From Alphaproteobacteria bacterium (GTDB taxonomy: Bacteria; Pseudomonadota; Alphaproteobacteria; RF32; CAG-239): a DNA stretch of 47,622 bases. The stretch covers positions 1 through 47,622 of the forward strand of contig JAGCYN010000021.1 in assembly GCA_017960745.1 (NCBI GenBank), in the 5' to 3' direction. This document shows, piece by piece, positions 21,865-39,120 of the stretch (position 1 is the stretch's first letter; every line of letters begins with the position of its first letter). The notes under the pieces were generated by a model. It worked only from the letters and a program-made list of their open reading frames with translations, had not been told where the DNA came from and made no database searches. Both the position numbers and the translations under genes were made by a program.

Positions 21865-21871
21865 CAAACAC

Positions 21872-21900
21872 AAAAAGCCACCATATTGGGTGGCTTTTTT
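21872..21900 (+). terminator. Rho-independent terminator after tRNA-Pro
   Basis: AGCCACC-atattg-GGTGGCT followed by T6. The stem is preceded by an A-run. Confidence 0.75.
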
Positions 21901-22032
21901 GTGTTTGTAGATTGCGTGCAATAGGTTTAGAACACGCGAGGAAGCGTGTTTGACACGGAGGCATGGCGAGACGGGAGTATCGCCGTATAAAGCCGACGCA
22001 GCGGCGCAGATTTTTTAACAAAAAATCAAGCC

Positions 22033-22051
22033 AATCTCGTCGCCCCGACCA
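22033..22051 (+). repeat. att-like direct repeat of the 3' end of tRNA-Pro
   Basis: AATCTCGTCGCCCCGACCA at 22033-22051 is identical to 21846-21864 (T-loop end through CCA). The flanking bases differ. Confidence 0.85.
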
Positions 22052-22312
22052 AACCTGACGAAAGCCTCTAGAGAGGATGTTCTCTAGAGGCTTTCTTATT
22101 GAAAATAAAGGATTTTTTCCTTCTAACAAAAAGTTCGAATAAAGCAATTTTAAAACTTTCCTTTTTTCATCAAAATTCGAACTTTCATAAATCTCAGGTA
22201 TCTTAGAAACTAACAATACCAAGTCTTCCAAGGTGTTTAGCCCTTGTTTGGTTATTTCATTATAGTGTGATAATTTTCTGTCTGTGGCTTTTAGCCGAAT
22301 ATCTGGGTGCAT
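22052..22312 (-). pseudogene. Remnant (C-terminal ~75 codons) of a recombinase gene abutting the att-like repeat
   Basis: SKIPEIYESSNFDEKRKVLKLLYSNFLLEGKNPLFSIRKPLENIL resembles the conserved C-terminal tail of large serine recombinase family proteins as I recall them. No catalytic domain is present upstream. The open frame runs on through the att copy and tRNA-Pro without a proper end. Confidence 0.45.
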
Positions 22313-22629
22313 TTGCCTTGCATAGTGAAAAAGAATTGGTAAAAAATACGCAAGAGGTGCTTTGGCCTCAAATTGTTAAAGGCTTAGCTAAACCTATAAC
22401 ACCGGAAGAAAAAACAACCGGAGCAAAAGACGGTAAGAAAGATATTCGCGATATTGCCTTTTCCGGCACATATGAAGAAATCCAAGCATATTTCAAGGAA
22501 ATGAAATGGTCTGACGGGCTGCCGATTGTGCCACCGACGGCTCAAAAAGTGAATGAATTTTTGAAATATACGCCACATAATTGGAACGAAACGATTGCCG
22601 TTCTACCAATTTCAAACAGAGAGATATAA
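22267..22629 (+). CDS. Hypothetical protein, possibly a truncated gene fragment
   Basis: 120-aa ORF with a conserved-looking stretch (MKWSDGLPIVPPTAQKV). No family confidently recognised. It lies in decayed DNA next to the recombinase remnant. Confidence 0.3.
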   Translation: MIIFCLWLLAEYLGAFALHSEKELVKNTQEVLWPQIVKGLAKPITPEEKTTGAKDGKKDIRDIAFSGTYEEIQAYFKEMKWSDGLPIVPPTAQKVNEFLKYTPHNWNETIAVLPISNREI

Positions 22630-22805
22630 TCAAGTGGAGCTCTATTGGTTGTGTGTGGCTAACAAAAAGCAGAAACTTATGCTATAAACACATTGATTTT
22701 TAGTGATAATTTAAGTATGCATAAAATGAGAATGTTTTACCAACCTCCGTCTTTCAAAAACCTCAAAATTTAATTGCTTTCTAGAGAATAGAGATATTTA
22801 GCGGC

Positions 22806-22850
22806 ATAAAAACATCCCCTCAGAAGAGTTTTCCTTCAAAGGGGATGTTC
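22806..22850 (-). terminator. Terminator after the carboxylesterase gene
   Basis: 10-bp stem AACATCCCCT / AGGGGATGTT, followed on the minus strand by a T-run. It lies 39 nt past the stop. Confidence 0.6.
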
Positions 22851-22888
22851 TTAAGTTTGTAACAGAAAACAACATTCACTTGACACAT

Positions 22889-24688
22889 TTAATGAATATT
22901 CTTTTTACTTTCAATATCTTCTGTCACCTTTTGTTTTGCTGCCAATACACCGTTTATATATCTTTGATAAACTTCCGGATAGCGCTCTGCGACAATCGGC
23001 AACTGTTCGGCAAATCCATTAATATAGCGGAACCGTTTGCCACTTTTCATCATTTTTAATGCCGCATCCACACGCTCTTTCTCCGGATTGGTTTCAACGC
23101 GCATATTGTCGCCAATCATCATTTTTTGACGCGTTTCATTATTGTAAACCGGCCAAGCATATTTTTCAGTAGACGGATCACCGGTTTTTGCAAAATTGGC
23201 TATCATTTTTTGAAATTCCAATGCCAAGTCTACTTCTTCTTTAGTCCCTTTCACATCAACTCCGTCAAATGTTCCGAACATATAGTAGCAGTCTATTGCG
23301 TGCGCTGCTCCTAAATATTCAGGATAATCATATTTCTTTTCAAAAGTATAACTGTAGCTGATGCCGCCGTTTTTAGCGTGTTCTAATGCCTGATAGGTAT
23401 TACCGATGGAAAGTGTTTTATCGTCCATATAACGGCTGGTAATTTCTTTACCGGAATAACCTAAGTTTTTCAATGCTTCTTTATATTGAGACAAATCCGT
23501 TTTAAATTCTTCTGTTTCCAGACTTTCATCCGTATCCATCCACACCTGACAAACGGCATCAAACATCTCTTCATCACCTAAAAAAACAGCTTGAAAATAA
23601 CGGAATTCATCAGCAGTATGCCCTTGCATAATGATTAAATCTTTACTCATACCATCTTCCCAAAGTTTGAAAGGATCATTTGGTATAATTTTGCCGTCAC
23701 GCACAATCAAGCTGTATAAATCTATTGCATTTTGATCCCAATACTTTTGAATTGTTTTGAAATCAATTTGCTGTAAATCTTTGACTGTTTTTGCTCCAAA
23801 TTCTTTTTTAAGAGCTTCTGGCAGGGCTAAAGTTTCTTCCATATCATTTCCCTGATTAACCGATCCGCTCATCGGGATAGCTTTTTGGAAAAGACCTTTT
23901 GCCTCCGGTAAAGTGCAAAGCGTTGAAACAGCTCCTCCGCCGGCTGATTCACCGGCAATCGTAATATTATTCGGATCACCGCCGAAAGCTGCAATATTTT
24001 CTTTAATCCATTTAAGTGATTGAACTAAATCAAAAATACTGTTATTGATTGATGTTTCATATTCTTTACCGTCAGGAAATTCGGAAAGATTCATTATTCC
24101 CATCATGCCCATACGATAGGTAACCGTAACTAATATCACATCAGGGTTGTGTTGAGCAAAAAACTGTCCGTTGTAAAGCGGGTCGGCAGTTCCGCCTTGC
24201 AGCCAACCACCCCCGTGAATAAACACCAGAACCGGTTTTTCTTTTGCGCCATTAACATTCTTCCAGACATTCAAATTTAAGCAAGCCTCGCTTTGTTCGT
24301 AAAGTGACGATCTTTCACCTGTTGGATCAATAGGTTGCATGCATGACGGTCCGAAGTAATACGCTTCATAGACCTTATCCGATGCTTCGGGATCTGTTGC
24401 CTTCTTAAAGCGTTTATCACCAACGGGTTGTGTTGCAAAAGGAATACCCTTCCATGCAATAACATCATCTTGTTTTCTGCCGACAAAAATGCCGTTCTTA
24501 CAATCAGCCGCCAAACTCTTATCATATTCACCGGTTATTTCTAAATTGGGATGATATTCCTCTATCTGGTTGATTTCTTGCCATTGTGCTTGCGTTTTAT
24601 AAGGAGAAACAGCACTATATCCGCAAGGAACATAACCGCCAATTCCTAACAATAAAGCAATTACACCTGAAATAGTTAATTTTGACAT
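22889..24688 (-). CDS. Secreted carboxylesterase, type B (COesterase family)
   Basis: Signal peptide, oxyanion HGGGW, and nucleophile elbow GESAGGG within ITIAGESAGGGAVS. 599 aa. Confidence 0.85.
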   Translation of the reverse strand: MSKLTISGVIALLLGIGGYVPCGYSAVSPYKTQAQWQEINQIEEYHPNLEITGEYDKSLAADCKNGIFVGRKQDDVIAWKGIPFATQPVGDKRFKKATDPEASDKVYEAYYFGPSCMQPIDPTGERSSLYEQSEACLNLNVWKNVNGAKEKPVLVFIHGGGWLQGGTADPLYNGQFFAQHNPDVILVTVTYRMGMMGIMNLSEFPDGKEYETSINNSIFDLVQSLKWIKENIAAFGGDPNNITIAGESAGGGAVSTLCTLPEAKGLFQKAIPMSGSVNQGNDMEETLALPEALKKEFGAKTVKDLQQIDFKTIQKYWDQNAIDLYSLIVRDGKIIPNDPFKLWEDGMSKDLIIMQGHTADEFRYFQAVFLGDEEMFDAVCQVWMDTDESLETEEFKTDLSQYKEALKNLGYSGKEITSRYMDDKTLSIGNTYQALEHAKNGGISYSYTFEKKYDYPEYLGAAHAIDCYYMFGTFDGVDVKGTKEEVDLALEFQKMIANFAKTGDPSTEKYAWPVYNNETRQKMMIGDNMRVETNPEKERVDAALKMMKSGKRFRYINGFAEQLPIVAERYPEVYQRYINGVLAAKQKVTEDIESKKNIH

Positions 24689-24839
24689 ATTATCCTCCCA
24701 TTATTTTCTATTATGGTGAAATACTATATTGTTTAATTGAAATATGCAATATTTTTATCATCTTTTTAAAAAATTTGACTGCAAAAATTATTTGATATAT
24801 AAAAGATTTTGAATTTAACAATTAACAAAAGGTGGGAAA

Positions 24840-25880
24840 ATGAAACTTTTAACTACAACTGTTTTGGTTGTTGGATTGTGCTTTGGCATTATTACAGAAT
24901 CTAATGCTTGTTCACGTGTAACATATACCTCCGAAGATGGGAGTGTTGTTACCGGTCGTACAATGGACTGGTTCAAACCGGATGATGTGAAATTAAATTT
25001 ATTTCCTAAAGGAATAGAATATTCCGGTTTAGGTAGCAACCCGCTTAAATGGACTTCAAAATATGCAAGTTTGGCAGTTACCAGTTATGGTTTTGTAAAC
25101 TCCGGTATTAATGAAGAAAATTTAGCTGTTGATGTTTTATATTTGGAAGCATCCAATTATGGTGATTTACAGCCTGAAGAAAAGACAATAACCTCTGAAA
25201 TGGTAACACGTTTCCTATTGGATAATTTTTCATCTGCTCAAGAAGTAGCAGATTATTTCGAAAATGAAAAATTTCGTGTTGTTTTAGATGAAGAAAGAGC
25301 CAAACTTTTAGGCGCCCCTATAACCATTCACTATATTGTAACGGATAAAACAGGTGATAATGTTATTATTGAATATATTGACGGCAAAGTAAAAATACAC
25401 CATCAAAAGGGACGAATTGTTTTTACCAACGATCCGGAATATGATAAAATGCTTGCTATAAAAGACTATTTTAAGGAGGCGGGAATTGAAGGAGGCATGC
25501 CGGGTTCATCATTATCGCAAGCCCGCTTTGTATATTTAACAGGATGGTTGGATCAGATGGTTAACACTCCAATACCGGAAATTACAAAAGAAATTCCGGA
25601 ATATACATTTGCCGATCAAACATCAGCTATGATACTTTCCTTAATGCGCGGTGTTTCTACACCGTATGGAATAGTTTTTGACACAGAACACTTAAATAAT
25701 ACATCAACTTTGTGGCGCACTGTATCTGATGTAAAAAATGGTGTGTTTTATTTTGACTCTTCCTTATTACCTTTAACATTTAAGGTTGATTTGAATCAGG
25801 TTGATTTTACTAAGCCTAAGGTTGTAAGTCCTTATAAAGACCATATTCCTCAGGGTGATATTACAGATTTGTTTAAATAA
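24840..25880 (+). CDS. Secreted Ntn hydrolase, choloylglycine hydrolase / linear amide C-N hydrolase family
   Basis: The signal peptide ends ...ESNA|CSRVTY, exposing the N-terminal nucleophile Cys. The family motif GRTMDW follows. SD GGTGGGAAAATG. Confidence 0.8.
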   Translation: MKLLTTTVLVVGLCFGIITESNACSRVTYTSEDGSVVTGRTMDWFKPDDVKLNLFPKGIEYSGLGSNPLKWTSKYASLAVTSYGFVNSGINEENLAVDVLYLEASNYGDLQPEEKTITSEMVTRFLLDNFSSAQEVADYFENEKFRVVLDEERAKLLGAPITIHYIVTDKTGDNVIIEYIDGKVKIHHQKGRIVFTNDPEYDKMLAIKDYFKEAGIEGGMPGSSLSQARFVYLTGWLDQMVNTPIPEITKEIPEYTFADQTSAMILSLMRGVSTPYGIVFDTEHLNNTSTLWRTVSDVKNGVFYFDSSLLPLTFKVDLNQVDFTKPKVVSPYKDHIPQGDITDLFK

Positions 25881-25925
25881 TGTGCCGCTATAAATCTAAA
25901 AGCAAATTAGATAAAAAGAAAACCA

Positions 25926-26075: not shown

Positions 26076-26294
26076 TTAAGCACAAAACAAGATAAAAAAT
26101 ATTACAATCGTTATCAATATTAAAAAATAAATCAATGTCTGCCACAGAAGACGTTTTCCGAAACTTAAAGTTTTATTTTTATAAAAACGATTTATCAGCG
26201 GATTGCCCAAAATATAGGTTAATACAAATGATATAACGGCAAATATCCGAAAGTTATATCTTAATGTTTCTTTGTTTTTTAAATAAAACTCCAA
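26076..26294 (-). CDS. Small membrane protein (72 aa)
   Basis: Two predicted TM helices. Overlaps the upstream small ORF by 16 nt. No family recognised. Confidence 0.4.
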   Translation of the reverse strand: MEFYLKNKETLRYNFRIFAVISFVLTYILGNPLINRFYKNKTLSFGKRLLWQTLIYFLILITIVIFFILFCA

Positions 26295-26419
26295 ATCATC
26301 TCTTCAAAAGGAGTATTTTCCAGAAAAGCAAAGAACAAACCTATCGTTAGTGTAACGATTATAATCCAGTATATCCAAAATTTTGCGACATTAATCAATT
26401 TACTTCCGAACTTAGGCAT
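26279..26419 (-). CDS. Small membrane protein (46 aa)
   Basis: MPKFGSKLINVAKFWIYWIIIVTLTIGLFFAF with SD AAGGA 7 nt upstream. The longer form in the ORF track lacks an SD. Confidence 0.4.
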   Translation of the reverse strand: MPKFGSKLINVAKFWIYWIIIVTLTIGLFFAFLENTPFEEMIWSFI

Positions 26420-26438
26420 TTCAAATCCTTTCGTGCTC

Positions 26439-26951
26439 TTATCTTGATGACATATATTCATAAAACGAAACGCTGTAATCATCCGTATCCGGTGCATTTA
26501 GAGATGAGTACCCAAAATCTGCAACAGCAATACAATAAGCCAATATAAAAGCATATATTAACTTTCGGTATGGTACTAAAATATCGGATTGCCATACAAA
26601 AATCATCATTGCGTACGTTATGCATCGGAATAGTAACAGTAAACAAATGGAGAAAATTAGTTTCCAAATAAATGGTAACGTGAACGGAATAAGAAAAATT
26701 AACAATATTTCTATTTCAAACATAGCCCAAGCCAAGAAAATTATAATCGGCAATTTCCAAGTTAGAGTAATTTTTTTTATTTTCTGATTGTCTTTACCGA
26801 ACCAAATTTTCCAGATTAAATAAGGAACGATAAAACTTACATATAAAGCCGGAACAACATATAAAAGAATAGCGAAAAACAAAGGGAAAGGAATTGTTGA
26901 AATTAACAACAGAATGGTTTTGATGAGTTTTGATTTTTCTACTTTTGCCAT
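26439..26951 (-). CDS. Polytopic membrane protein (170 aa)
   Basis: About 5 TM helices. The start is set at MAKVEKSK because the longer ORF form (to 27032) would contain the terminator hairpin at 26990-27023. Confidence 0.5.
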   Translation of the reverse strand: MAKVEKSKLIKTILLLISTIPFPLFFAILLYVVPALYVSFIVPYLIWKIWFGKDNQKIKKITLTWKLPIIIFLAWAMFEIEILLIFLIPFTLPFIWKLIFSICLLLLFRCITYAMMIFVWQSDILVPYRKLIYAFILAYCIAVADFGYSSLNAPDTDDYSVSFYEYMSSR

Positions 26952-26989
26952 CTTGCTACCTGTGGTTTTATTTTTAATTTTATTCAAAA

Positions 26990-27023
26990 TATAATAAAAA
27001 GAGCCGAATGTCAATCGGCTCTT
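26990..27023 (-). terminator. Rho-independent terminator after the SAA-like / Cys-rich gene pair
   Basis: Perfect 9-bp stem AAGAGCCGA / TCGGCTCTT with a 7-nt loop, followed on the minus strand by TTTTTATTATATTTT. Confidence 0.7.
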
Positions 27024-27057
27024 GAGATTCATTTAAGCTGTAAGTTGTTTAAATTTA

Positions 27058-27444
27058 TTATTTTTCACAGCTTTTAGGATAAATCCAATCTTCACCGAGT
27101 TTATGACATTTATCCAATGTAAATTCCGTATCACATTCTCCAGTCTTTTTATTTAGCGGCAAGTTATTATTTAAGCAAATTTCGTTAAAAACTTCTTTAG
27201 CCACACAACCTGCTTGTTTATAACGACATTTTTTGAAAAGTTCTATTTGGTCATCTGTCAACTTAATGCAACCGTTAATTTTGTTCCAGGCTAAACAATC
27301 TTCACGGCAACGATTTTCGTTGTAATCCCAAACATTACCCTCATCCAAACAGCCATTTTGTTCTAAAAAAACAAAATACTTCCAACTACCAAATAACAGA
27401 ACTGCTAAAATGATACAAATTTTAATTACTTTTGAATAATGCAT
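27058..27444 (-). CDS. Small exported or membrane-anchored Cys-rich protein (128 aa, 10 Cys)
   Basis: N-terminal hydrophobic helix KVIKICIILAVLLFGSW followed by a Cys-rich domain. SD GGAG precedes the ATG, which lies 11 nt after the stop of the SAA-like gene. Confidence 0.6.
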   Translation of the reverse strand: MHYSKVIKICIILAVLLFGSWKYFVFLEQNGCLDEGNVWDYNENRCREDCLAWNKINGCIKLTDDQIELFKKCRYKQAGCVAKEVFNEICLNNNLPLNKKTGECDTEFTLDKCHKLGEDWIYPKSCEK

Positions 27445-27455
27445 AATATCTCCGC

Positions 27456-28286
27456 TTACCAATATTTCTTAGGAAAAGCCGGATTTTTATTGCGATAATC
27501 TGCACAAGCATCTTGTGCATTACGATATACTCCGGAATTTCCTCGTAATCGTCCTGTCGCATTTACACGCAAATCATAAAATCTATCTTTTTGGGCTTCA
27601 TCCTCATCTAATCCCTTATAGTACTGGTTCCAATAAAAGTCAAATTTTTCTTTTGCATCTCCCAAGGCCTTGGCAGTGTTATAACCATAAGGTCCTCGTG
27701 CTGCCGCATTGAAATTTGCTTTACAATGATGATAATCATCCAAATTTTTATAACCATGATTTTTCATTTTAAAATACTCGGATGCCATATCCATTGTACC
27801 CCCGACAATTTGATGAATTGGAGATTGTTGATTTGTTGTTTGCAATGTATCTACATTTTGATTACTCAAACCGCTTGTGTTGTTATTCTGAAAATAACTG
27901 CTTGGTTTGCCGACTAGGCTTTCGGTATTGACGGTATAATCGGAATTTGCAAAAGCTTGACCATTATTTGTACCATTACCAAATCCGCTGTTGTTCAACT
28001 GATTTGTAACGTTTTGAATATTTTGGCTTATGTTTGAAGTGCCGAAGCCGTAGTTATTTTCCGGCGAACCACCCCAAAAATTTGTGCCATACTGCGGGTA
28101 GTTTTCTTCCGCTATTCCTTGCTTGGCAAAAACTTCCGCCAGTTGATTTTCTCTGGCCAATCGCGCGCTTTGATATTCCAATTCATCACGTGTTGAAAAT
28201 CCGCTGTGGTCAACCCCATAACTGTCAACTCCGCCGTTGCCGGATTGATAGCCGGTTAATTTTTTGATTTCATCCCATATATCCAT
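27456..28286 (-). CDS. Protein with an N-terminal Q/N/G-rich low-complexity region and a C-terminal serum amyloid A (SAA)-like domain
   Basis: aa 163-276 align without gaps to vertebrate SAA: DDYHHCKANFNAAARGPYGYNTAKALGDAKE versus [31 protein letters not shown], and the C-terminus NPAFPKKYW versus RPAGLPEKY. Strong SD AAGAGGAGAA. Confidence 0.8.
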   Translation of the reverse strand: MDIWDEIKKLTGYQSGNGGVDSYGVDHSGFSTRDELEYQSARLARENQLAEVFAKQGIAEENYPQYGTNFWGGSPENNYGFGTSNISQNIQNVTNQLNNSGFGNGTNNGQAFANSDYTVNTESLVGKPSSYFQNNNTSGLSNQNVDTLQTTNQQSPIHQIVGGTMDMASEYFKMKNHGYKNLDDYHHCKANFNAAARGPYGYNTAKALGDAKEKFDFYWNQYYKGLDEDEAQKDRFYDLRVNATGRLRGNSGVYRNAQDACADYRNKNPAFPKKYW

Positions 28287-28385: not shown

Positions 28386-28847
28386 TTAGCCAAGCAAAAG
28401 CTTTTTAAATTCGCGATTATTTTGTTGTGCCAACTGTCTTAATTTGTTCTTTTTGTTATGTTCTACATAAGGAATTTGCATTTCTTTTACTTTATTTGCT
28501 AAATACCATTCAACAAAACTGTTTGCCGTCAGTTTGATACCGATTTGTAGCGCTTCCTTGTATTTTTCTTTTTGAATTTCCGCAAATTTCTTTCTGAATT
28601 GCGCATATTTTTTATCACGAACAACTGCGCCCCTATGCGCTTTCTCTCTGTGATGAGTTTTAATTACGGCATCCATCGTTGTTGCATGAAGCTTGCCCCA
28701 GTCTTCTCTTGCTTCTTTGAGCAATTCTACCGCCCAAGATAAAATCTGCTGTTGAAACTCCCTGTTTTGATGTAAATATTCGTTATGCAAACACATTGCA
28801 TTGAATTGGCGCAACGCCTTAAAAGGTATAATTTCTTTGTAATCCAT
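28386..28847 (-). CDS. Hypothetical helical protein (153 aa)
   Basis: ORF with SD AAAGGAG upstream of MDYKEIIPF. No family recognised. Confidence 0.5.
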   Translation of the reverse strand: MDYKEIIPFKALRQFNAMCLHNEYLHQNREFQQQILSWAVELLKEAREDWGKLHATTMDAVIKTHHREKAHRGAVVRDKKYAQFRKKFAEIQKEKYKEALQIGIKLTANSFVEWYLANKVKEMQIPYVEHNKKNKLRQLAQQNNREFKKLLLG

Positions 28848-29015
28848 CTTTGCTCCTTTCAAAATAAGAAATATATTATATAATTAGGAAGCAAAATTCC
28901 AAAACACAAGTGTCATGCTAGCTTAGACAATAAAATCTGCGACGTTGTGTGAAAATTTTTGAATCGGTTTGCAATTTTACTTCAGTGCTTTTATGTTTGA
29001 AAACAAGAGGTAGTT

Positions 29016-30056
29016 ATGAGCATAGAAGAAAAGATATTTAAACGCACGATTATAGATTTTATCCGGTTGGAAAAATTCGGTTTTACCAAATCTGACGGCA
29101 AATGGACTTATAGCGAGCTGTTTATGGCCGGCGACTTTAAGGCGGTGGTAAACATTACGCCAAAAGGCGATGTATCAGGAACAGTTTTTGAGACCGCTAC
29201 CGAAGACGAATTTTTGCCGCTGCGGGTTGAAAACATGGAGGGATTTGCCGGCGAGGTGCGCGCCGAATATCAAAAGATTTTGGATAATATCAAAGCCAAC
29301 TGTTGCCGGATTAACTACTTTGTGCACCCGCAATCTAACCGTCTGACGCAAGCGATTTTTGAAACTTATGGCGATGTGCCGGTTTTTCCGTGGGATAATG
29401 ACGATGCCGGCGTTTTCAAAAATCCGGATAACGGCAAATGGTACGCGCTGATTATGTGTATTGACCGGAGCAAGCTCAATAAAAAGCTTTCCGGCAAAAT
29501 TGAGGTGATGAATATCAAGTTAGATGAAGTGAAAATACCGGAATTGCACAAACAAAAGGGCTTTTATCCGGCGTATCATATGAATAAAAAAAACTGGATT
29601 ACAATGACGCTTGATAACACCGTGCCGGATGAGTTTTTGCTTGCGTTGATTAACGAGAGCCACGCCTTTACACTTGGAAAACACAAGCGCCATCGCGCCG
29701 GAAATAATGCGTGGTTAGTGCCGGCAAATCCGAAATTTTTTGATATTGAAGCCGCTTTTGCCAAACAAAAAGAAATTATCTGGAAGCAATCGAGCGACTT
29801 GCAGGTTGGGAATACGGCGTATATGTATGTCGGCGCGCCGATTTCGGCGGTTTTGTATAAGTGCACGGTAACGGCGGTGGATATTCCGTATGATTACGAG
29901 GATGAAAACCTCAAAATCAGCAAGGTGATGAAAATTAAACTCATCAAAAAATATGCCAAGGATTTTATGAATTTGGCCAAGCTCGGTGAATACGGCGTCC
30001 GAACCGTCCGCGGCCCGCGGATTTGCCCGCCAAATTTAGCTGATGTGTTGAAATAG
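29016..30056 (+). CDS. MmcQ/YjbR-family domain protein fused to a C-terminal PUA/EVE-like domain
   Basis: The central region (VFPWDNDDAGVFKNPDNGKWYALIM...YHMNKKNWITMTLD) matches YjbR/MmcQ. The C-terminal WLVPANPKFFDIEAAF...VGNTAYMYVGAPISAVLYKC looks PUA/EVE-like. The stop is TAG, followed by a terminator. Confidence 0.6.
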   Translation: MSIEEKIFKRTIIDFIRLEKFGFTKSDGKWTYSELFMAGDFKAVVNITPKGDVSGTVFETATEDEFLPLRVENMEGFAGEVRAEYQKILDNIKANCCRINYFVHPQSNRLTQAIFETYGDVPVFPWDNDDAGVFKNPDNGKWYALIMCIDRSKLNKKLSGKIEVMNIKLDEVKIPELHKQKGFYPAYHMNKKNWITMTLDNTVPDEFLLALINESHAFTLGKHKRHRAGNNAWLVPANPKFFDIEAAFAKQKEIIWKQSSDLQVGNTAYMYVGAPISAVLYKCTVTAVDIPYDYEDENLKISKVMKIKLIKKYAKDFMNLAKLGEYGVRTVRGPRICPPNLADVLK

Positions 30057-30236: not shown

Positions 30237-30581
30237 TTAAAACATTCCGCCGTTCCAGCCCCAGAGGTCAGCCGGATGGTAGGTTACGTAAACATTTGCG
30301 CCGTCAATACCGTAATCACTTTGCAAAATGTCACAAATCTCGCCGGTTAAGCCCTGACACGCCGATTTTGATGCCGATCCCAACAGTCGGATGGCGATAT
30401 AAGCACCTTTTTCGAGCTTTCGCTCTGCCATATACAGCGACTTATCGTCCTCAATGTTCGCCATAATATAAGCCTTCGGCTTGCCAAACGCGGCCGATAC
30501 GGCTCCGGTCAGCTTCTTTTGCAGGTCATCTTTCTGGCTTGCGTCCAGTTTAATACTCATTTTTGCTTCAATGTACGGCAT
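30237..30581 (-). CDS. MIF / phenylpyruvate tautomerase family protein
   Basis: 114 aa beginning MP (Pro1). FGKPKAYIMANI versus MIF TGKPPQYIAVHV. C-terminal WGWNGGMF versus MIF VGWNNSTF. Confidence 0.7.
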   Translation of the reverse strand: MPYIEAKMSIKLDASQKDDLQKKLTGAVSAAFGKPKAYIMANIEDDKSLYMAERKLEKGAYIAIRLLGSASKSACQGLTGEICDILQSDYGIDGANVYVTYHPADLWGWNGGMF

Positions 30582-30704: not shown

Positions 30705-31154
30705 ATGCAGGTTATTAAGTATTATCAAGCGGAAAATCAGGCGCATTGGCGCGAAGAAATCGGCAAAGGCGATTGGTCGGCAGCGGAGTTGTTGCACGAC
30801 TGGCTGAAAGACGATAAGTTAAAGCAGATATGTGGGGATTCAACCGAAGTTTATCTGTTGACCGACGGCGATAAGCTGGTTTCGTTTGCCACTTTGGCGC
30901 CGCAAGATGAAATTGACGCGCCGGAACTGTCGCCGTGGATTGGGTTTGTATATACCTTTCCGGCCTATCGCGGCCATCGCAACGCCGGCAAACTGCTTGC
31001 CCACATATGCGAAGTCTTAAAATCTGCCGGAACCGAAAAAGTCTACATCTCCACCGATGAAGTCGGTCTTTACGAAAAATACGGCTTTACTTTTTGGCAG
31101 ACCATGACCACCCGCGAGGGCAAACCAACCCGAGTGTATGTAAAGAATTTGTAA
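30705..31154 (+). CDS. GNAT-family N-acetyltransferase
   Basis: 149 aa with the acetyl-CoA motif A region VYTFPAYRGHRNAGKLLAHI and the C-terminal YEKYGF. Confidence 0.75.
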   Translation: MQVIKYYQAENQAHWREEIGKGDWSAAELLHDWLKDDKLKQICGDSTEVYLLTDGDKLVSFATLAPQDEIDAPELSPWIGFVYTFPAYRGHRNAGKLLAHICEVLKSAGTEKVYISTDEVGLYEKYGFTFWQTMTTREGKPTRVYVKNL

Positions 31155-32212: not shown

Positions 32213-35200
32213 TTAAAAATTAAGCCTTAAACCCGCATTAAATTCATATGTTGTTCTGACATGACCGCCGGTTGTGGTTTCTGCCTCGCCATACACGGAT
32301 AAATTTTGATGAATATTCCATGTACCGCCGAGAGCAAATTCACCCCATGTGCCACCCAAATCTTCCCGATATTGACGGCTGGTCAGACCTTTGCTGACAA
32401 CAATTTTAGAATCACCTTTCCAATCATTTAAGACGGACGCTCGGACATAAACGCTGCCTTTTTTATCCGCAGACACCCAACCCGTCGCAATACCTAAACG
32501 GCCGACGGCACTTTTGACATCAGACTGTTTTACTTTGACGCCGCTGTCGGTAACATAGTCCGCACCATCCACATATCCGTATAAAAACTCTGTTTGCGGT
32601 TCTACGTAAAAATTCGTTCTGCCGACACCCAAGCGCCACCCGTATTCCACGGAAGCGGAATTTCCCGACGTGCTGTAACGACCGTGAGAATGATTGCCGT
32701 TTGCATTAAAACCGTAATCAGATTTCAAATGATGATGCTTCAACGTAATATCCACAAACTGCCCGTCTGCACCGAGCCAACCGCCGTAAAGCCCGTATGA
32801 ATAATTTTTATCGTCGGCTTTACCGATTTTGAGTTTTCCTTTGCCGTCGGTGTGCGAACCCATTAAACCGGCAAAGAAATTACCGAAACGATGGTCAATA
32901 CCGAATTGGAATGTTTTATAATCATTATGCAAACCCTTATATTTGCTTTGACCGGCAATAAATTTTGCCCATGCACCGCTTTCGCCCGGCATATCACGCA
33001 AATCACCCATACGCTTTTCAAGATCATTCATTTGCGCACGGAACACCTGAAAGCCGACGGAAGTAATTTTTTGCAGCGCATCAACCAAAGTATTTTTCTT
33101 TTCGTTGGCGGCAACAAGCTTCCCGTTAGGGTTAACAACAGCGTTAATTTCACCGCTGATTTCACCTTCGGCAATGTGCAAATTTAAATCCGAAGATGTT
33201 TGATTGTTGTTAATGGTTAAAATTTGTGCGCCCTGTTGAACCATTTGTTCCGTCGAATCACTTTGCAACTGATTTGCCAGATTGCTATCCAAATTCAACA
33301 CCAGATTTGAATCGTTTGTACCGGCATAAGTATCAATGGTAATCTGGTCTTTTTGAATTTTATCGGTTCTGAATTCCGCGTTTCCGGAATTTTGTAAAGT
33401 GTTGATTTCAATCGTACCGGTACCGGCATCAACGTTAAGATTGGCCTGCTTATGAACCGTTAAGTCATCAAACTGCGCCGTACCGTCCGCGGTTTTAACA
33501 ACTATGTTGCTCATTCCGCCGGCCGAAACCTTTCCGTTACCGACAAAATTGACCGCCGCTACATTACCGTTTGACAGCGCAAGTTCGGTATTTTCTTCCG
33601 TTTGCAAGGTATTCACATCAGCATTTCCGCCGTAAGTCAGCTTACCGCCGACAAGCAAAACATCAAAACCGTCAGCACTTATAATATTTCCGGCGTAACT
33701 CATTTCAAAATCCGGATCAGCATCTTCTGTGGCATTTCCCTCATCATCGGGCTCAAAACCAAAAGTCAGAAGCGTTCTGTCAGCTTCTTCTTCCGGTTTA
33801 AACAATGTCATCCCGTTACCGTAATTTCCGTAACGATTACCGGCGGAAGACCAATCGGATATAATATCACCGCTGATTTGCGCGCCGTTTAAAATGTTGA
33901 TTTCTCTGACCAACGCATTATCCGAAATATAAATTGCGGACTTACTGCCGGCAACACGACCGCTGATATCTACCTGCGCCGCCAAAGGTCCGTTGATTGC
34001 GTCAACCGTTCCGTCTTCATCAACATCGGTCCATTGGCCCGTTTCATCGTCTTTTTTAACCTGAAAATAAGAACCGCGATATTCATTTTGGTCGCCCAAG
34101 AGATTACCGCCAAAATCAAAACGCAAGGCATCGCCGCCCGAACCCATAGCCTCAACGACACCCTGAATATTCAAAACATGACTGTTACCGTAAGAAACCA
34201 ATACACCGATATTATCCTTGCCGTTGGCTTGAACCGCAACACCGTCCGGAACAATCAATGTATTTTCTTGACCGTCAATGCGAACACCGTAGGCCGCTTC
34301 GCCGCGTGTTTTAATATCGGCCGCCTGCGTTACGGTATTGTTATTTCCGTAAAGATGCAACCCTATGCCCCAATTTTGGTCACTGTCAAAACCGTTATCG
34401 TTTGTATAGGTCAGCCAATTGTTATAAATGGAAAAACCGAAAAACCGGCGTCGGTCAATATTGGTAAAACCGATATCCTGCAAAACGGCAAGTTCCGCTT
34501 CCATGAAAGTTCCCCAATTTCGATAATCCTGATGGCTCATCATGCTGTTTTGCAATTCCAAATGGCTCATTTCCGGAATCTCGACAAGTTGATCATCGTC
34601 ATCATAATCAAGCTCATAACCGTTCACGGGAATACCCTTCACCGTCAAACCGTCCAAATCTCCGTCAGGAAGCGCCAATTCGGTTGTTTGACCGTCAACC
34701 GTCAAAACCTCTTCAACATTATCGCCCCAAAAATAAGCACCGCTTTGCGAGCCGTTGTTATACTGATAAAAGCTGTCTTCATCCGGGTCGTCAACCGGAC
34801 CTTTTTCAAAAATCATGCCGGGTAGTAACTGTTGATCATAGATATCATAGAGATGGCTGCTGAATACCGAATTGTTCGGCGTTGCATAAAAAAAGGTGTC
34901 GCCGTCATCATCTTCATCATCATCAACCGAAGTGGAAATTCCCAAACCGTGCATCATTTCATGAATAATAACGGAAGACATTGCCGCACCTTCACCCTTG
35001 TTTGCCAACGAATATAAGAAATCGCCGTCTTTGTCGCCCATTTCGCCGACGTTCAAAATGCCGGTCGGTAATTGCCTATTTTTATCTTGGTCCATAAACC
35101 ATGTGCTTAAACGAGTGCCGGATATACCTTCAATTGTGCCGCTGGTGGCAGATTCAAACGAGGCGTTTTCTTCCGTATCGGCTAATGTTTCAATAACCGG

Positions 35201-35509
35201 CGCTTCCGACGGAACACCGAAAACATCTTTAATATAGCGCATTGCACCTCGGACATTGGTTAAATCCTGATCGCTGAAAGAGCGGGTAACTTCACAACTG
35301 TCGCCCTCAGAACTGTTCAAATCTTCCGCGGAAAATTCAATTTCTTGCCCCTTATCATAAATACGCAGAACAACCATTTCATCGCCGTCAACCGCAATCG
35401 GCTGTTCTTTATAGGTGTATTCGTCCGGATTAAACGCCAATGCCGCCGAAATATAGAAATTAAAAATAAAAATTGCCGATAAAGTTCTTTTTAACAATAC
35501 CTTTGTCAT
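32213..35509 (-). CDS. Autotransporter with a zincin (HExxH) metalloprotease-like passenger
   Basis: Signal peptide MTKVLLKRTLSAIFIFNFYISAALA. HEMMH at 34949-34963, acidic runs and a repetitive beta-helix-like passenger. The C-terminal beta-barrel ends ...YEFNAGLRLNF. The start is set at the ATG with SD GAGG; the ORF track extends it to 35626. Confidence 0.8.
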   Translation of the reverse strand: MTKVLLKRTLSAIFIFNFYISAALAFNPDEYTYKEQPIAVDGDEMVVLRIYDKGQEIEFSAEDLNSSEGDSCEVTRSFSDQDLTNVRGAMRYIKDVFGVPSEAPVIETLADTEENASFESATSGTIEGISGTRLSTWFMDQDKNRQLPTGILNVGEMGDKDGDFLYSLANKGEGAAMSSVIIHEMMHGLGISTSVDDDEDDDGDTFFYATPNNSVFSSHLYDIYDQQLLPGMIFEKGPVDDPDEDSFYQYNNGSQSGAYFWGDNVEEVLTVDGQTTELALPDGDLDGLTVKGIPVNGYELDYDDDDQLVEIPEMSHLELQNSMMSHQDYRNWGTFMEAELAVLQDIGFTNIDRRRFFGFSIYNNWLTYTNDNGFDSDQNWGIGLHLYGNNNTVTQAADIKTRGEAAYGVRIDGQENTLIVPDGVAVQANGKDNIGVLVSYGNSHVLNIQGVVEAMGSGGDALRFDFGGNLLGDQNEYRGSYFQVKKDDETGQWTDVDEDGTVDAINGPLAAQVDISGRVAGSKSAIYISDNALVREINILNGAQISGDIISDWSSAGNRYGNYGNGMTLFKPEEEADRTLLTFGFEPDDEGNATEDADPDFEMSYAGNIISADGFDVLLVGGKLTYGGNADVNTLQTEENTELALSNGNVAAVNFVGNGKVSAGGMSNIVVKTADGTAQFDDLTVHKQANLNVDAGTGTIEINTLQNSGNAEFRTDKIQKDQITIDTYAGTNDSNLVLNLDSNLANQLQSDSTEQMVQQGAQILTINNNQTSSDLNLHIAEGEISGEINAVVNPNGKLVAANEKKNTLVDALQKITSVGFQVFRAQMNDLEKRMGDLRDMPGESGAWAKFIAGQSKYKGLHNDYKTFQFGIDHRFGNFFAGLMGSHTDGKGKLKIGKADDKNYSYGLYGGWLGADGQFVDITLKHHHLKSDYGFNANGNHSHGRYSTSGNSASVEYGWRLGVGRTNFYVEPQTEFLYGYVDGADYVTDSGVKVKQSDVKSAVGRLGIATGWVSADKKGSVYVRASVLNDWKGDSKIVVSKGLTSRQYREDLGGTWGEFALGGTWNIHQNLSVYGEAETTTGGHVRTTYEFNAGLRLNF

Positions 35510-35714
35510 AATCAACCTCGCATTGATGTGCCATAACAGCGGTTTATTTTCGGTGTGATTGTATGAAATTTCATTTGAAAAAGCAAGATTTTTACAACAT
35601 TCACGCATATACACTAAGCAAAACATAGCGTTGCGGGGTGAAAATGCCCCGCAATTTTTTTATGCTTTGCTTTTATTGCAAATATGTGTTAAATTAACAC
35701 CGGAGAGGATACCT

Positions 35715-36899
35715 ATGAACGAAACCGATTTAAGGGAAAAATATCAGGCTTTCTGCAATGAACGCATGACGGCGGCGGTCGCGGAATTTAACAAAGACCG
35801 CAAAAAATATCGCAATATTTCGATTATCGAATATGTGATGTTGGCGGGTTTTTCCCTCATGTTTCTGTCATTGGTTCTTTATTTTCTGATGCCACGTTTT
35901 TCCTTTTTGGAAAACACCATGATAATTGCGGTGATTTCCTCTTTTGCCCTTATTGGTATAACCTTCGGCATCATGCGTGCGTTTTACCCCGATATTACCG
36001 ACCTTTCGGGTATTGATCCCGAGGCTAAGATAAAATCTGCGCTGATGCCCGATTTTATGAAACTGTTCGGCAATTTTGAATGGAAGAAAAAAAGAGAAAC
36101 GCTGGTTTATGACTATAATAAATTACAACAAACCATGATTGTTCCGCAAAATATAACGGTTGTCGGTGATGATTGCATCAGCGGCCGCTATGAAGATGTC
36201 GGCATCAACATCACCGAGATGACCGTCGGTAAAATGGCTTTCTTTTTATATATTCTGCTGTTTTCCGTTGGCGGTTTGTTGCTGTATCTTTTCATCAGCC
36301 GCCTGATTTTGCCGATTGTGCTGATGGTTATCATGGCTTTGGGGGTTTTTATTCATGCTTATATTGCTTACGCTTTGCTCGGCATTACTGTTGTTTTTGC
36401 CTTGTATTGGCTGATAAAACTGATTTATAAAATTTTTGTTCATTTCCTGACTGTCGGCTATTTCCGCGGCGCCATGATTGAGCTGGATATGCCTAAAAAA
36501 TTTTCCGGCCATACATTTTTGTTTGAAAACGCTTTCAGCGCCGGCGCCATCAAACGAAAAAATAAAACCGGCTATGAGCGTGTGATTTTGGAAGACAGCG
36601 CATTCAACAAAATTTGGAGCATTTATTCCGATAATCAGCAGGAAGCCCGCTATGTTTTAACGCCGGCTTTTATGGAGCGCCTGAAAAACATTTCGCTTGC
36701 CTTTGAAGCAAAATATCTCAGAATGTCGTTCAAAAACAATAAAATGACACTGTTGGCCGCCTCGCCGAAAGATTTGTTTGCCATGGGCAACATTTTCAAA
36801 AATACCGATAAAAGCACTTTTGACACTCTGTTTAACGAAATGCTTTCGGTGTTACAGCTTGTTGATGATTTGAAATTACGAAAGGAATACCGGCTATGA
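35715..36899 (+). CDS. DUF3137-family membrane protein
   Basis: The C-terminal ILEDSAFNKIWSIYSDNQQEARYVLTPAFMERL matches the DUF3137 signature as I recall it. It has N-terminal and central TM helices. The start is set at the ATG after GGAGAGG; the ORF track extends it to 35559. Confidence 0.65.
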   Translation: MNETDLREKYQAFCNERMTAAVAEFNKDRKKYRNISIIEYVMLAGFSLMFLSLVLYFLMPRFSFLENTMIIAVISSFALIGITFGIMRAFYPDITDLSGIDPEAKIKSALMPDFMKLFGNFEWKKKRETLVYDYNKLQQTMIVPQNITVVGDDCISGRYEDVGINITEMTVGKMAFFLYILLFSVGGLLLYLFISRLILPIVLMVIMALGVFIHAYIAYALLGITVVFALYWLIKLIYKIFVHFLTVGYFRGAMIELDMPKKFSGHTFLFENAFSAGAIKRKNKTGYERVILEDSAFNKIWSIYSDNQQEARYVLTPAFMERLKNISLAFEAKYLRMSFKNNKMTLLAASPKDLFAMGNIFKNTDKSTFDTLFNEMLSVLQLVDDLKLRKEYRL

Positions 36900-38008
36900 C
36901 TTATTCCTTGAATAAATTAGATTTAATCTGGCTGATTGACAATACCGAAGTTGCCAACGTCTGCGCGTCCATTGACGAATGCAACAGGCAAGAGTTGGTG
37001 CTGAAAGTATATCGCGCCCACCATCGGGGCAAAGTTGAAGAGATTTTTGCAGATTTCAAAACCGCGGTGCGTGTCGATAAAGATAAAAACATTTGCATCA
37101 AAATTAAAAATTTCACACCGGGCGATTTTTACGATTCCATAGAAATGCTCGGCGGCAAAATGTTCTTAAATTCCAGCGACGGCAAAATCTATTATGTGCC
37201 GCTGGACAAGCACAAAAACCGCCGCCTGTTTAACCAAACGCCGTCCAGAATTTTGGCCAACCTGCCATCGCATAAAAAACTCGAAATTCTGAAATCTTTT
37301 TCGCAAGATTGCTTTTATGAACTGAAATATAAAACCAAACATGAGCTTGCTTTGGCCAAAAAAACCGACAAGCTGTTTGCGTTGCTGCAACTTAAAATTC
37401 CTAAAGAATTTATGGACGATGAAATGCGCAAAATCCGCCTGATTACGGCGGAAATCGCCCAAATTCAGGGCATCAAGAAAAAGCTGGAAAACTTTAATCG
37501 CGTGCCGCGAGCACAGCAAAAAAGTCTGCTGAAAACGGTTTGCGAGCTGACCGCAAAATATAACCGTATCGATACCCCGAATGTAAAATTTTTGAGCCAA
37601 AAGCAAATCGATAAAGACGAGGGTTTGGATAAGTGGGTAAGCACCGAAGCATTTACATACGGAAAAAATGTATGTATCAATATGGATTATCTGGATAAAA
37701 TTGACGGAGCGCAGGCACTATCCATGGCATGGCACGAAACAACCCATGTTGCTCAAGCAACCGGCGATTATTCTCAATATCCGCTGGTTGAGGAAATGTT
37801 TGGTCGAAATTTGGATTATTTGCAAAAAATGCCGGAAACCTACCTCTTTCATCCGCAGGAACAGGTTGTTTTTGCTCTTGAAAAGCAATTTATTGAAAAA
37901 TTGGTTGAAAACACCAAAATCCGCACCAATGACAAAACTTTTGAATTTATGACGGAATATAACGTCGCCGAGCAATACTTCCATCGCGCTATACAAAGAA
38001 AAATATAA
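36896..38008 (+). CDS. Hypothetical protein with an HExxH motif (possible metallopeptidase)
   Basis: 370-aa ORF overlapping the upstream stop by 4 nt (ATGA). HETTH at 37733-37747. No signal peptide and no family recognised. Confidence 0.55.
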   Translation: MTYSLNKLDLIWLIDNTEVANVCASIDECNRQELVLKVYRAHHRGKVEEIFADFKTAVRVDKDKNICIKIKNFTPGDFYDSIEMLGGKMFLNSSDGKIYYVPLDKHKNRRLFNQTPSRILANLPSHKKLEILKSFSQDCFYELKYKTKHELALAKKTDKLFALLQLKIPKEFMDDEMRKIRLITAEIAQIQGIKKKLENFNRVPRAQQKSLLKTVCELTAKYNRIDTPNVKFLSQKQIDKDEGLDKWVSTEAFTYGKNVCINMDYLDKIDGAQALSMAWHETTHVAQATGDYSQYPLVEEMFGRNLDYLQKMPETYLFHPQEQVVFALEKQFIEKLVENTKIRTNDKTFEFMTEYNVAEQYFHRAIQRKI

Positions 38009-38075
38009 TCTGTTTAAAAAAGTAAAAGTGCCCTCCCGGACACTCTCGCTTTTGTGTTTCTGTAACTTCTCGAAC

Positions 38076-39038
38076 TTAGCGACGACGCACTTTTTTACGA
38101 GCCGGTTTTTTGTAAGCAACCTTTTTGGGGTGGTTGAACGCATATTCTATAGAATCTTCCAGATTGCGGCCATAAGGACAAGTATTAATACTGTCGCAAA
38201 CTAAAGTATTATCCGCAAAATCATTCATCGGTATAGAATAAGCGGCACCAAGCGGCTGTTCTGCGAAATTTACAGAATTTTCCAGAGAAAACTCTCCGGT
38301 GTTATCCATGATGATTTCATTAAAAAAGATTTTTTCTTCCATATATCTTCTTTTAATGAGAACATCCAATTTCTTACCTTTTGCATACACTTTCTTGTCC
38401 ATCAGTGATATCAGTTCTTTTTTACAAAATTCCTGTGCCTCGCGTGCGTCAACTTTATAATTGGAAGAATTCTCTCCGACAACCATAACTTCAACGGAAT
38501 CTGTGCAATTTTTATAAATAAAGTAACTGTCAATCACGTCTGCCATATAAGTAGGTGTACCGTCCTTTTCATGAAGAATCCCGCTGCCGCAGTTGTAGAA
38601 AAGTGAACCGAGGGCTGCAATTTCTTGCGTGGTCATTTCTGCAAGCGGTAAATATTTCTGCATATCGGGATAAATGTAATTCTCAACATGCTGTTTGAAA
38701 TATCCCAGAAGTTCTTCTTTGTCGTGTATCCTGTCTGCAGAAGTTACCTTCTTTCCGTCAGGGCGAACAGTATTGCCAATGCCGATTGTATAGCATTTGC
38801 CGTAAGGATCCCAGTAGGAATAGACTTTAACGCCTTCAAAGTGTGCAATCAAACACAACATATCGTACTCAGCTTCCTGAAACTTTTTGAAAGCAAGAGA
38901 GTCCTCGTCAGGATTGATCTCGGTATTCAGAATGACTTTGTCGAATGTATCAACAAAAGCATCTGCATTCACCCAGGTTGCATACGCAAACATTGTAAAT
39001 GCAATCATAAATTTGATCGCTCTTGATAATTTATCCAT
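38076..39038 (-). CDS. Secreted GH24 (phage-type) lysozyme family protein with a C-terminal extension and cationic tail
   Basis: Signal peptide ...ATWVNADA. IAHFEGVKVYSYWDPYGKCYTIGIGNT and ALGSLFYNCG match GH24 lysozyme motifs. The C-terminus is KKVAYKKPARKKVRRR. Confidence 0.7.
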   Translation of the reverse strand: MDKLSRAIKFMIAFTMFAYATWVNADAFVDTFDKVILNTEINPDEDSLAFKKFQEAEYDMLCLIAHFEGVKVYSYWDPYGKCYTIGIGNTVRPDGKKVTSADRIHDKEELLGYFKQHVENYIYPDMQKYLPLAEMTTQEIAALGSLFYNCGSGILHEKDGTPTYMADVIDSYFIYKNCTDSVEVMVVGENSSNYKVDAREAQEFCKKELISLMDKKVYAKGKKLDVLIKRRYMEEKIFFNEIIMDNTGEFSLENSVNFAEQPLGAAYSIPMNDFADNTLVCDSINTCPYGRNLEDSIEYAFNHPKKVAYKKPARKKVRRR

Positions 39039-39120
39039 AATACATGAGATTTTGAAGATAATAATGAATTAAGGTAGTTTTAATATAACATTTTGATATT
39101 TTTTTGTCAATAGTTAAAAT

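Follow-up and report, generated by a model that had tools for sequence, protein, structure and literature searches.

The prok-SAA domain, one of the Lipocone domains, is found as the toxin tip of polymorphic toxins, and metazoan SAA has been described as its descendant (Burroughs et al., eLife 2025, PMC12419801). One class of immunity proteins of prok-SAA has a helix and four strands with four invariant cysteines, and an action of the domain on a lipid head group or a lipid-linked envelope precursor has been predicted by analogy with TelC only (PMC12419801). TelC, the one characterised Lipocone toxin, cleaves lipid II outside the cytoplasm. Bacteria account for a substantial share of the tautomerase superfamily and of its MIF subgroup (PMC5818174). 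Here, we analysed a region with genes of both kinds, positions 21865-39120 of a window that is the entire 47.6-kb contig C97 of a 1.39-Mb, 133-contig metagenome-assembled genome (MAG) of an alphaproteobacterium. In a preliminary description, the region was taken for a coherent host-interaction or colonisation island of homologs of vertebrate immunity proteins. This is not supported: the SAA-like domain is a predicted toxin tip, the MIF-like protein belongs to a large bacterial clade and appears to be mobile cargo, and the modules are not linked in other genomes. It is likely that the region is a mosaic plasticity zone that has grown at a tRNA-Pro site, composed of modules with separate histories, and that one of these modules encodes a toxin-immunity mechanism.

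The source MAG has a GC content of 0.44, a completeness of 88.5% and a contamination of 4.75%. The comparison set for the genus comprises 49 species-level genomes, with the source genome counted in, which are designated by handles from G000 onwards; 35 of them form a high-quality subset. Protein families were assigned with Pfam and NCBIfam profiles and tRNA genes with ARAGORN. Synonymous divergence is given as Nei-Gojobori dS, with the same partner genomes used for modules and core genes. Each segment was compared in composition with all windows of the same length in the source genome, and export or membrane location was called from simple hydropathy and a reading of the N-termini. Structures were modelled with AlphaFold2 (AF2) and compared using Foldseek. 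An identical SAA-like protein is encoded on contigs of XIEF21, a set of metagenomes from the gastrointestinal tract of ruminants.

The region is bordered by two conserved blocks. The left block, which consists of asd, EptA, alaS, TspO, an MBL-fold protein, map, radC and tRNA-Pro, keeps its order in the genus, whole or in part, and it stops at tRNA-Pro in all 12 relatives for which the radC flank was fetched. This tRNA-Pro(UGG) (21788..21864, plus strand; ARAGORN) is an integration hotspot. The right block, composed of smr, mltA, a Tim44-like gene, secB, SpoU, orf119 and ppdK, begins at smr, with Pfam matches for Smr and MltA, and is equally conserved; its outer genes orf119 and ppdK were not seen in every relative. 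The earlier statement that conserved synteny ends at tRNA-Pro and resumes at smr and mltA is thus correct. The two blocks are not neighbours in the relatives (in G012, for instance, one is on a 248-kb contig and the other on a 117-kb contig), so a plain insertion between neighbouring core genes does not describe the region and there is no empty site for comparison. The region sits at a synteny breakpoint. Over the first 15 kb past tRNA-Pro in nine genomes, pairs of genomes share 0-2 of about 15 gene families, with the exception of the subgroup G046, G048, G017 and G007, which has a common recombinase element. In three other relatives, the contig ends no more than about 3.4 kb after tRNA-Pro.

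The modules of the region are distributed independently of each other. Among the 49 genomes, a carboxylesterase gene is found in 8, an adjacent CBAH-family hydrolase gene in 6, the MIF gene in 17, a Bor-family lipoprotein gene in 27, and true orthologs of an autotransporter and of a GH24 muramidase in 2 (G000 and G002). Their synonymous divergence falls into three tiers. The very recent tier comprises the predicted immunity gene Cys134 (dS 0.04), CBAH when compared with G010 (0.11) and the membrane-protein gene TM197 (0.24). The intermediate tier comprises the esterase (0.54-0.65), CBAH in the other comparisons (0.68-0.74), MIF (0.48-0.68), a GNAT acetyltransferase (0.56-0.70), orf158 (0.54), a YjbR fusion (0.82) and the membrane protein TM181 (0.84). 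The third tier is core-like, with Bor at 1.1-1.45, the autotransporter at 1.63 and GH24 at saturation; most of the flanking core genes have a dS of 1.1 to saturation. From the module-by-module patchy distribution and the three dS tiers, it follows that this is an accessory region formed by several acquisition events, which agrees with the preliminary description on this point.

The base composition is also patchy. Segment 22052-28960 has a GC content of 0.350, the lowest of 378 genome windows of the same size (mean 0.439), and its tetranucleotide distance is among the highest 0.3%, while the short segment 31201-32200 has a GC content of 0.338, at the 0.5th percentile. The remaining segments, 28961-31200 (GC 0.443) and 32201-39120 (GC 0.420), are unremarkable, so that about 8 of the 17 kb are compositionally aberrant. 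The AT-richness previously noticed at 22.6-28.9 kb is therefore real, but the segment at 29.0-31.2 kb, which had been called GC-richer, only equals the genome average.

Islands linked to tRNA genes and elements of large serine recombinases share several characteristics with this region. It adjoins the 3' side of a tRNA gene, and the 3' end of that tRNA occurs in it a second time. This att-like duplicate (22033..22051, plus strand) is an exact 19-nt copy situated 187 bp from the tRNA; its 17-nt core occurs exactly twice in the window, as against 0.03 times expected. The same doublet is found in G007, and in G046 the second copy is 24.8 kb from the tRNA. The 187-bp spacer and the duplicate run on seamlessly from the tRNA, as they do in G007 and G017. 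The duplicate is carried, as in such elements, by the 3' end of a recombinase gene: on the minus strand, 22034..22312 corresponds to the final ~88 codons of a gene for a large serine recombinase, with 74% amino acid identity to residues 409-496 of an intact 511-residue homolog, whereas the N-terminal part of the recombinase is absent there. The intact homolog, with Resolvase and Recombinase domains, abuts tRNA-Pro in G012 and G051, and its 3' end overlaps the tRNA. The remnant is abutted by a pseudogene fragment of a UGSC-family secreted protein (22267..22629, plus strand; 112 residues, 93% identical to an internal part of an ~700-residue open reading frame (ORF)), whose parent ORF, which matches Pfam UGSC, is found complete on contig C68 of the source MAG. 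Given the tRNA-end duplicate, the recombinase remnant and the UGSC fragment, segment 21865-22805 can be described as the debris of an integrative element that is no longer able to move. Variable cargo, atypical composition in about half of the length and patchy presence among relatives are further common traits. However, the recombinase is reduced here to its last 88 codons, the sole repeat pair spans 187 bp and a distal repeat is missing. Moreover, the cargo consists of nested smaller cassettes of differing age and not of one element, and the right-hand third, located at a synteny breakpoint, is old DNA of vertical descent.

Two observations concern the same site. In G046 (C38:11876-36789), tRNA-Pro and the exact 19-nt copy of its 3' end enclose an interval of 24.8 kb with a DUF2924 gene, a gene for a 571-residue serine recombinase, MIF and GNAT; this interval looks like an intact integrated element. 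A separate contig of the same strain (ENA XIEF21 SAMN15830195 scaffold_5140) ends at window position 22068, just past the att-like duplicate, which would fit an assembly broken at tRNA-Pro by a repeat or by heterogeneity.

The SAA-like gene (27456..28286, minus strand) encodes a protein of 276 residues, which can be described as composed of a handle (residues 1-145, nt 27852-28286), a linker, and a prok-SAA tip (residues 156-260, nt 27507-27821). The tip matches Pfam SAA (3.9e-15; 56.5 bits for PF00277, cut-off 30.8) and, in phmmer, mouse and human SAA chains (1.6e-8). The AF2 model of the tip is confident and shows four helices, formed by residues 156-176, 183-195, 199-222 and 228-251, and a short fifth helix at 257-260. 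This model aligns to SAA1 and SAA3 with target TM scores of 0.74-0.78 and a Foldseek probability of 1.0. Helix 4 contains the sequence VNATGR (residues 241-246), which is the sNxxGR signature of the SAA-Wnt clade. When 22 members of the family are aligned, at least 90% of them keep the glycine of this motif. In the model, the linker (residues 99-151) is disordered and it is rich in Asn and Gly.

The handle, which is the conserved N-terminal part, is found in 39 of the 49 genus genomes, at up to 13 places per genome and mostly with 50-94% identity, and in 356 database proteins overall. The ORFs that bear it are 260-450 residues long and have differing C-terminal parts. According to Pfam, the other tips on this handle are YkuD/Tlde1, GH108 with PG_binding_3, lysozyme-like domains and, in one database protein, Pesticin. 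Partial copies that have no start are arranged in rows behind full toxin genes in G007, G009, G017 and G037, while G033 and G036 have the headless end of the SAA tip only, followed by the genes of Cys134 and TM197. The differing tips on one handle, the start-less copies and the headless tips make this a polymorphic toxin architecture. The SAA-like protein is, by these sequence criteria, a putative polymorphic antibacterial toxin, whose tip would be interchangeable on a shared handle.

The gene that overlaps the stop codon of the toxin gene (27058..27462, minus strand) encodes Cys134, a membrane-anchored Cys-rich protein and a predicted periplasm-facing immunity protein. It has 115 representative relatives, in which C32, C46, C50 and C59 are invariant. 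Its AF2 model (mean pLDDT 95.8) comprises a helix, residues 2-34, followed by a run of four strands; no solved structural relative of it was found. In its modelled fold and its four cysteines, Cys134 fits the published class of prok-SAA immunity proteins. Cys134 is 97-98.5% identical to its counterparts in G033 and G036 (dS 0.04), which shows that the toxin cassette has been exchanged very recently between species. A terminator follows the Cys134 gene (27023-26999). The next gene (26439..27032, minus strand) encodes TM197, a multi-pass membrane protein with six hydrophobic segments. TM197 also follows the Cys134 gene in G033 and G036, is 86% identical to its homolog in G046 (dS 0.24, within a range of 0.24-0.53) and is a candidate second immunity protein. 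Further along, a gene for a small membrane protein (26076..26497, minus strand) is split into two overlapping ORFs of 72 residues, probably by a frameshift or a sequencing error; in G017 it is a single ORF of 145 residues, which adjoins orf158 and tRNA-Pro. On the other side, directly upstream of the toxin gene, orf158 (28386..28862, minus strand) encodes a basic, cytoplasmic-looking protein, which had no match in the Pfam, NCBIfam or PADLOC searches. It has the same position in G046 and G053, with 82-85% identity (dS 0.54), and is located beside tRNA-Pro or tRNA-Met in G017, G032 and G011. In PADLOC, ten proteins of the island had no match, and a reading of the region as a defence island was therefore dropped.

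In two relatives, very Cys-rich secreted proteins of 299 residues are encoded beside toxin loci (G009, 4752-5651; G017, 1939-2838); they have no significant similarity to the 1590-residue Cys-rich protein encoded at 59-4831 of the window. A link between this 1590-residue protein and the Cys-rich immunity proteins was discarded, as phmmer returned nothing significant.

Compared with the described prok-SAA systems (PMC12419801), this locus has in common the conserved N-terminal part with swappable tips, the four-helix tip with its short fifth helix and sNxxGR motif, the adjacent membrane-anchored protein of the four-Cys immunity type, and the headless tips in relatives. It differs in that the handle matches none of the trafficking domains listed for those systems (PAAR, LXG/WXG, RHS, MuF, VirD4-binding, T9SS, cystatin-like), in that the toxin has only 276 residues, and in that no sheath gene of a type VI secretion system (T6SS) is found in the genus genomes tested. 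Delivery by a T6SS was dropped, since the sheath gene VipB/TssC was not found in the source genome or in five relatives, six genomes in all. In G053 (C15:2530-4296) and G046 (C38, ~3096-3503), a gene of the ShlB/FhaC-type transporter TpsB precedes orf158 and the toxin gene, at a distance of at most 2 kb upstream. Two-partner secretion was also dropped, because the source genome has no TpsB, because only 2 of 17 toxin loci have such a gene, and because the toxin has no signal peptide.

Other envelope-directed toxins offer partial parallels. Tlde1/YkuD domains, as in the Salmonella effector Tlde1, are joined to this handle in sister proteins, but effectors of the Tlde1 and TelC types are delivered by a T6SS or a type VII secretion system (T7SS), neither of which is evident here. 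Colicin M, which degrades lipid II, and pesticin, a muramidase, resemble the toxin in being small soluble proteins without a signal peptide, with an immunity protein that, here by prediction, faces the periplasm; the disordered Gly/Asn-rich segment ahead of an envelope-targeting killing domain is likewise a predicted similarity. In contrast to these bacteriocins, the toxin locus has no recognisable lysis gene, receptor-binding domain, TonB box or Tol box. The likeness is a functional analogy only, as there is no sequence relation to the translocation domains of colicins.

A mechanism can be proposed on this basis. The handle and the disordered linker would serve for release and uptake by a route independent of a T6SS. 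The prok-SAA tip may then act in the periplasm of the target cell on a lipid-linked envelope precursor, by analogy with the action of TelC on lipid II, and Cys134, placed in the inner membrane of the producer and facing the periplasm, would neutralise the toxin. Although the concept of prok-SAA toxins has already been published (PMC12419801), we tentatively suggest that the handle might mark an undescribed T6SS-independent route, either bacteriocin-like release and uptake or a new kind of export, for periplasm-acting toxins in uncultured Alphaproteobacteria of the gut and rumen, and that this locus might represent a compact, intact pair of a prok-SAA toxin and a four-Cys immunity protein. If so, the locus would allow SAA domains to be tested directly as enzymes that cut lipid-linked precursors, which bears on how vertebrate SAA acts against bacteria.

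The other families named in the preliminary description, COesterase, CBAH, Bor, the zincin autotransporter and GH24, are present at the places indicated, as is SAA, each with its Pfam match. Segment 22806-25906 is a hydrolase cassette of 3.1 kb. It comprises the gene of a secreted type-B carboxylesterase (22889..24688, minus strand; Pfam COesterase, 2e-91; GESAG at 246), whose best solved relatives are p-nitrobenzyl esterases of Bacillus, and the gene of an exported Ntn hydrolase of the choloylglycine hydrolase/penicillin V acylase family, CBAH (24840..25880, plus strand; Pfam CBAH, 1.9e-29). In CBAH, Cys24 corresponds to position 1 of the model and directly follows the signal peptide, and the GRTMD motif is present. 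Its score of 54.6 bits is below the cut-off of 350 of the curated bile-salt-hydrolase equivalog (NCBIfam bile_salt_hydro, NF038245), and its solved relatives include choloylglycine hydrolases of Bacteroides and exported enzymes of Agrobacterium and Pectobacterium. An outside donor for CBAH was sought without success: past a small clade with 69-100% identity, the next relatives have at most 53%, so that none can be named.

Within the genus, the esterase is conserved at 87-91% and CBAH at 84-97% amino acid identity. The whole 3.1-kb piece aligns to G011, G048 and G031 with 85-86% nucleotide identity, and the CBAH half aligns with 93% to G010, where it lies on its own contig of 3.3 kb. For comparison, among core genes the nucleotide identity of map is about 74% in G048 and that of mltA about 69% in G011. 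The esterase and CBAH genes adjoin each other in divergent orientation on the four contigs where both are whole or nearly so (G011, G048, G031 and G050), and the cassette is located near tRNA-Met in G011, G048 and G050. In the high-quality subset, it is found in 4-5 of the 35 genomes, with 86-97% identity, including species whose MltA is 60-64% identical. The hydrolase cassette thus appears to move between species of the genus. In G050 (contigs C21, C49 and C36), the cassette is present in at least two copies and the contigs break inside the esterase gene, which suggests a repeated or recently duplicated element.

The MIF gene is present, as had been reported, but it is located at 30237..30581 on the minus strand and encodes a tautomerase of 114 residues (Pfam MIF, 8.4e-9; PF01187, 36.2 bits, cut-off 22). 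The plus-strand ORF 30098-30466, which had been taken for the MIF gene, matches no family and overlaps the real gene. The protein starts with MPYIE, which provides Pro-1, has GKP at 33-35 and has no signal peptide. Its best solved relative is the MIF of Prochlorococcus (PDB-id 2xcz), to which it aligns over its full length (E 1.8e-10). It thus shares its length of 114 residues, Pro-1 and GKP with the bacterial MIF tautomerases, and it differs from them in being cargo, apparently, of a mobile element. Among its 277 close homologs, the source names given are all those of bacterial MAGs. Of the 17 genus genomes with MIF, 14 have it at 88-97% amino acid identity and one at 66%, while two have C-terminal fragments only. 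In G048 and G017, the gene lies 4-7 kb past tRNA-Pro in an element that consists of a DUF2924 gene, the gene of a 571-residue serine recombinase, the gene of an unknown protein, F1, that of a DnaJ-domain protein, and MIF. Parts of this element are found in G046, which has no gene for the DnaJ protein, and in G007, which has neither the DUF2924 nor the recombinase gene. MIF therefore seems to be cargo of serine-recombinase elements.

The MIF gene stands between two genes for cytoplasmic proteins. The first (29016..30056, plus strand) encodes a fusion protein of 346 residues with a central YjbR/MmcQ domain (Pfam YjbR, 1.9e-15), which is 86% identical to a protein at the same position in G053. 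The second (30705..31154, plus strand) encodes the GNAT acetyltransferase (Pfam Acetyltransf_1, 1.2e-9); it is 93% identical in G046 and G048, where it belongs to the same tRNA-Pro islands and does not adjoin MIF. The following AT-rich gene of the membrane protein TM181 (31230-31775, plus strand) is convergent with that of the Bor-family lipoprotein (31827-32126, minus strand; Pfam Lambda_Bor, 7e-17; PF06291, 61.7 bits, cut-off 25), and the pair is adjacent in G017 too. Like Bor of phage lambda and Iss of E. coli, this lipoprotein of about 100 residues matches Lambda_Bor over its full length and has a lipobox, LSAC. Unlike them, it is not prophage-borne, and it is found in about half of the genus, at 66-80% amino acid identity and with core-like divergence.

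The right-hand part of the region (32213-39038) is older and has core-like divergence. A type Va autotransporter (32213..35626, minus strand; Pfam PF03797, 1.7e-33; TIGR01414, 9.8e-46) has the zincin motif HEMMH in its passenger, at 222; its likely start is at 35509, where an internal Met is followed by a signal-like N-terminus. The passenger has no solved sequence relative. The sole ortholog, in G002, is 65% identical, and nine other genomes have larger paralogs with 33-42% identity. The gene of a DUF3137 membrane protein (35559-36899, plus strand; Pfam DUF3137, 2.1e-29) overlaps orf370 (36896-38008, plus strand), which encodes a protein of 370 residues with an HETTH motif at 280; a homolog of orf370 with 35% identity abuts smr in G012, G004 and G014. 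The last gene (38076..39038, minus strand) encodes an exported GH24 muramidase with a C-terminal extension (Pfam Phage_lysozyme, 8.3e-11). Its ortholog in G002 is 66% identical and again lies beside smr and mltA.

Several points weigh against the mosaic interpretation and against its toxin component. Many of the genus genomes are fragmented MAGs, so that absence means not found and is no proof of absence. The dS is noisy for the short genes of 99-134 codons. In addition, ppdK, a highly expressed core gene, has a low dS of 0.77-0.79, and the intermediate tier of 0.5-0.8 is therefore suggestive only and weaker than the tier of 0.04-0.24. No distal att repeat for the entire 17 kb was found within 3 mismatches, and of an integrase or recombinase gene the region retains nothing but ~88 codons from the end; thus the arrival of the modules is deduced from comparison and was not seen. 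As for the handle, residues 1-150 have no Pfam or NCBIfam match and no recognisable secretion signal, and the AF2 model of the handle is poor (pLDDT 40-54).

It is unlikely that the region has been selected as a unit for interaction with, or colonisation of, the host, with SAA and MIF mimicking or disturbing innate immunity, Bor conferring serum resistance, and the autotransporter and hydrolases acting on host substrates. The organism is indeed known from ruminant gastrointestinal metagenomes, and the proteins of the Bor, autotransporter and choloylglycine hydrolase families are genuine, the closest solved relatives of CBAH including enzymes of the bile-salt-hydrolase family from Bacteroides. 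Yet CBAH scores far under the curated bile-salt-hydrolase cut-off. The same interpretation gains from the 10 of 16 products that have a signal peptide, a lipobox or membrane helices, although the claim that almost every gene encodes a secreted, surface or host-facing product was overstated: the SAA-tipped protein, orf158, the YjbR fusion, MIF, GNAT and orf370 look cytoplasmic. The two proteins that would address innate immunity, the SAA-tipped protein and MIF, are thus among those without a signal peptide. Furthermore, the handle that bears the SAA tip can instead bear tips that degrade peptidoglycan, a protein of the immunity type accompanies the SAA tip, and the published direction of descent leads from a bacterial toxin to metazoan SAA (PMC12419801). 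All named close homologs of MIF are bacterial MAGs and the gene travels with recombinase elements, while the modules occur independently, in 6-8, 17, 27 and 2 of the 49 genomes. The secreted esterase, CBAH, Bor and the autotransporter may have a host-facing role.

That the region is ordinary vertically inherited DNA, with a low GC content due to the amino acid make-up of membrane and secreted proteins and a patchiness due to incomplete MAGs, is very improbable and largely refuted. In its favour, the segments 28961-31200 and 32201-39120, half of the region, are compositionally like the genome, the divergence of Bor, the autotransporter and GH24 resembles that of core genes, and many of the relatives are 73-90% complete. 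Against it stand a hydrolase cassette that is restricted to few of the high-quality genomes and is nevertheless 86-97% identical there, next to an MltA identity of 60-64% in some, and the place of this cassette beside tRNA-Met in other species. The dS of 0.04-0.24 in the toxin module, compared with at least 1.1 for core genes, also contradicts vertical descent, as do the recombinase remnant and the att duplicate. Least credible is a chimera of assembly or binning, in which an AT-rich segment of another organism was wrongly joined. One might think of it for a MAG of 133 contigs with 4.75% estimated contamination, whose most extreme window is the AT-rich block, but a separate XIEF21 metagenome record contains 22068-38286, a length of 16.2 kb, with its gene order unchanged and with 2 mismatches. 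Moreover, the AT-rich cassettes are found in many genus genomes beside genus-specific genes (orf158, the tRNA-Pro flank, Bor), and the DNA continues without a seam from the tRNA through the 187-bp spacer and the att duplicate, as in G007 and G017.

The mosaic interpretation thus remains the likely one, and under it the overall theme of the region would be rivalry with other bacteria nearby and a varying cell surface; the secreted hydrolases may, as an option, also help the organism to live in the gut. A bacterial gene whose product looks like a vertebrate immune protein need not be directed at the host; here, the resemblance to SAA would come from an interbacterial weapon, and animal SAA is held to descend from proteins of this kind. 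A gut symbiont with a small genome apparently renews its accessory genes by swapping cassettes of 1-3 kb at tRNA-linked hotspots, far later than its species split. The toxin-immunity pair is a good candidate for a first biochemical test of a prok-SAA domain.

Two minor observations were made in the flanks. In the left block, alaS (window 14761-17391, minus strand) consists of two ORFs of 568 and 301 residues, in the same frame and 18 nt apart. In G017 (contig C10), rho abuts smr, while in the window rho (46298-47551) is 6.5 kb away, on the opposite side of the right block. The position of rho reflects a local rearrangement within the genus.

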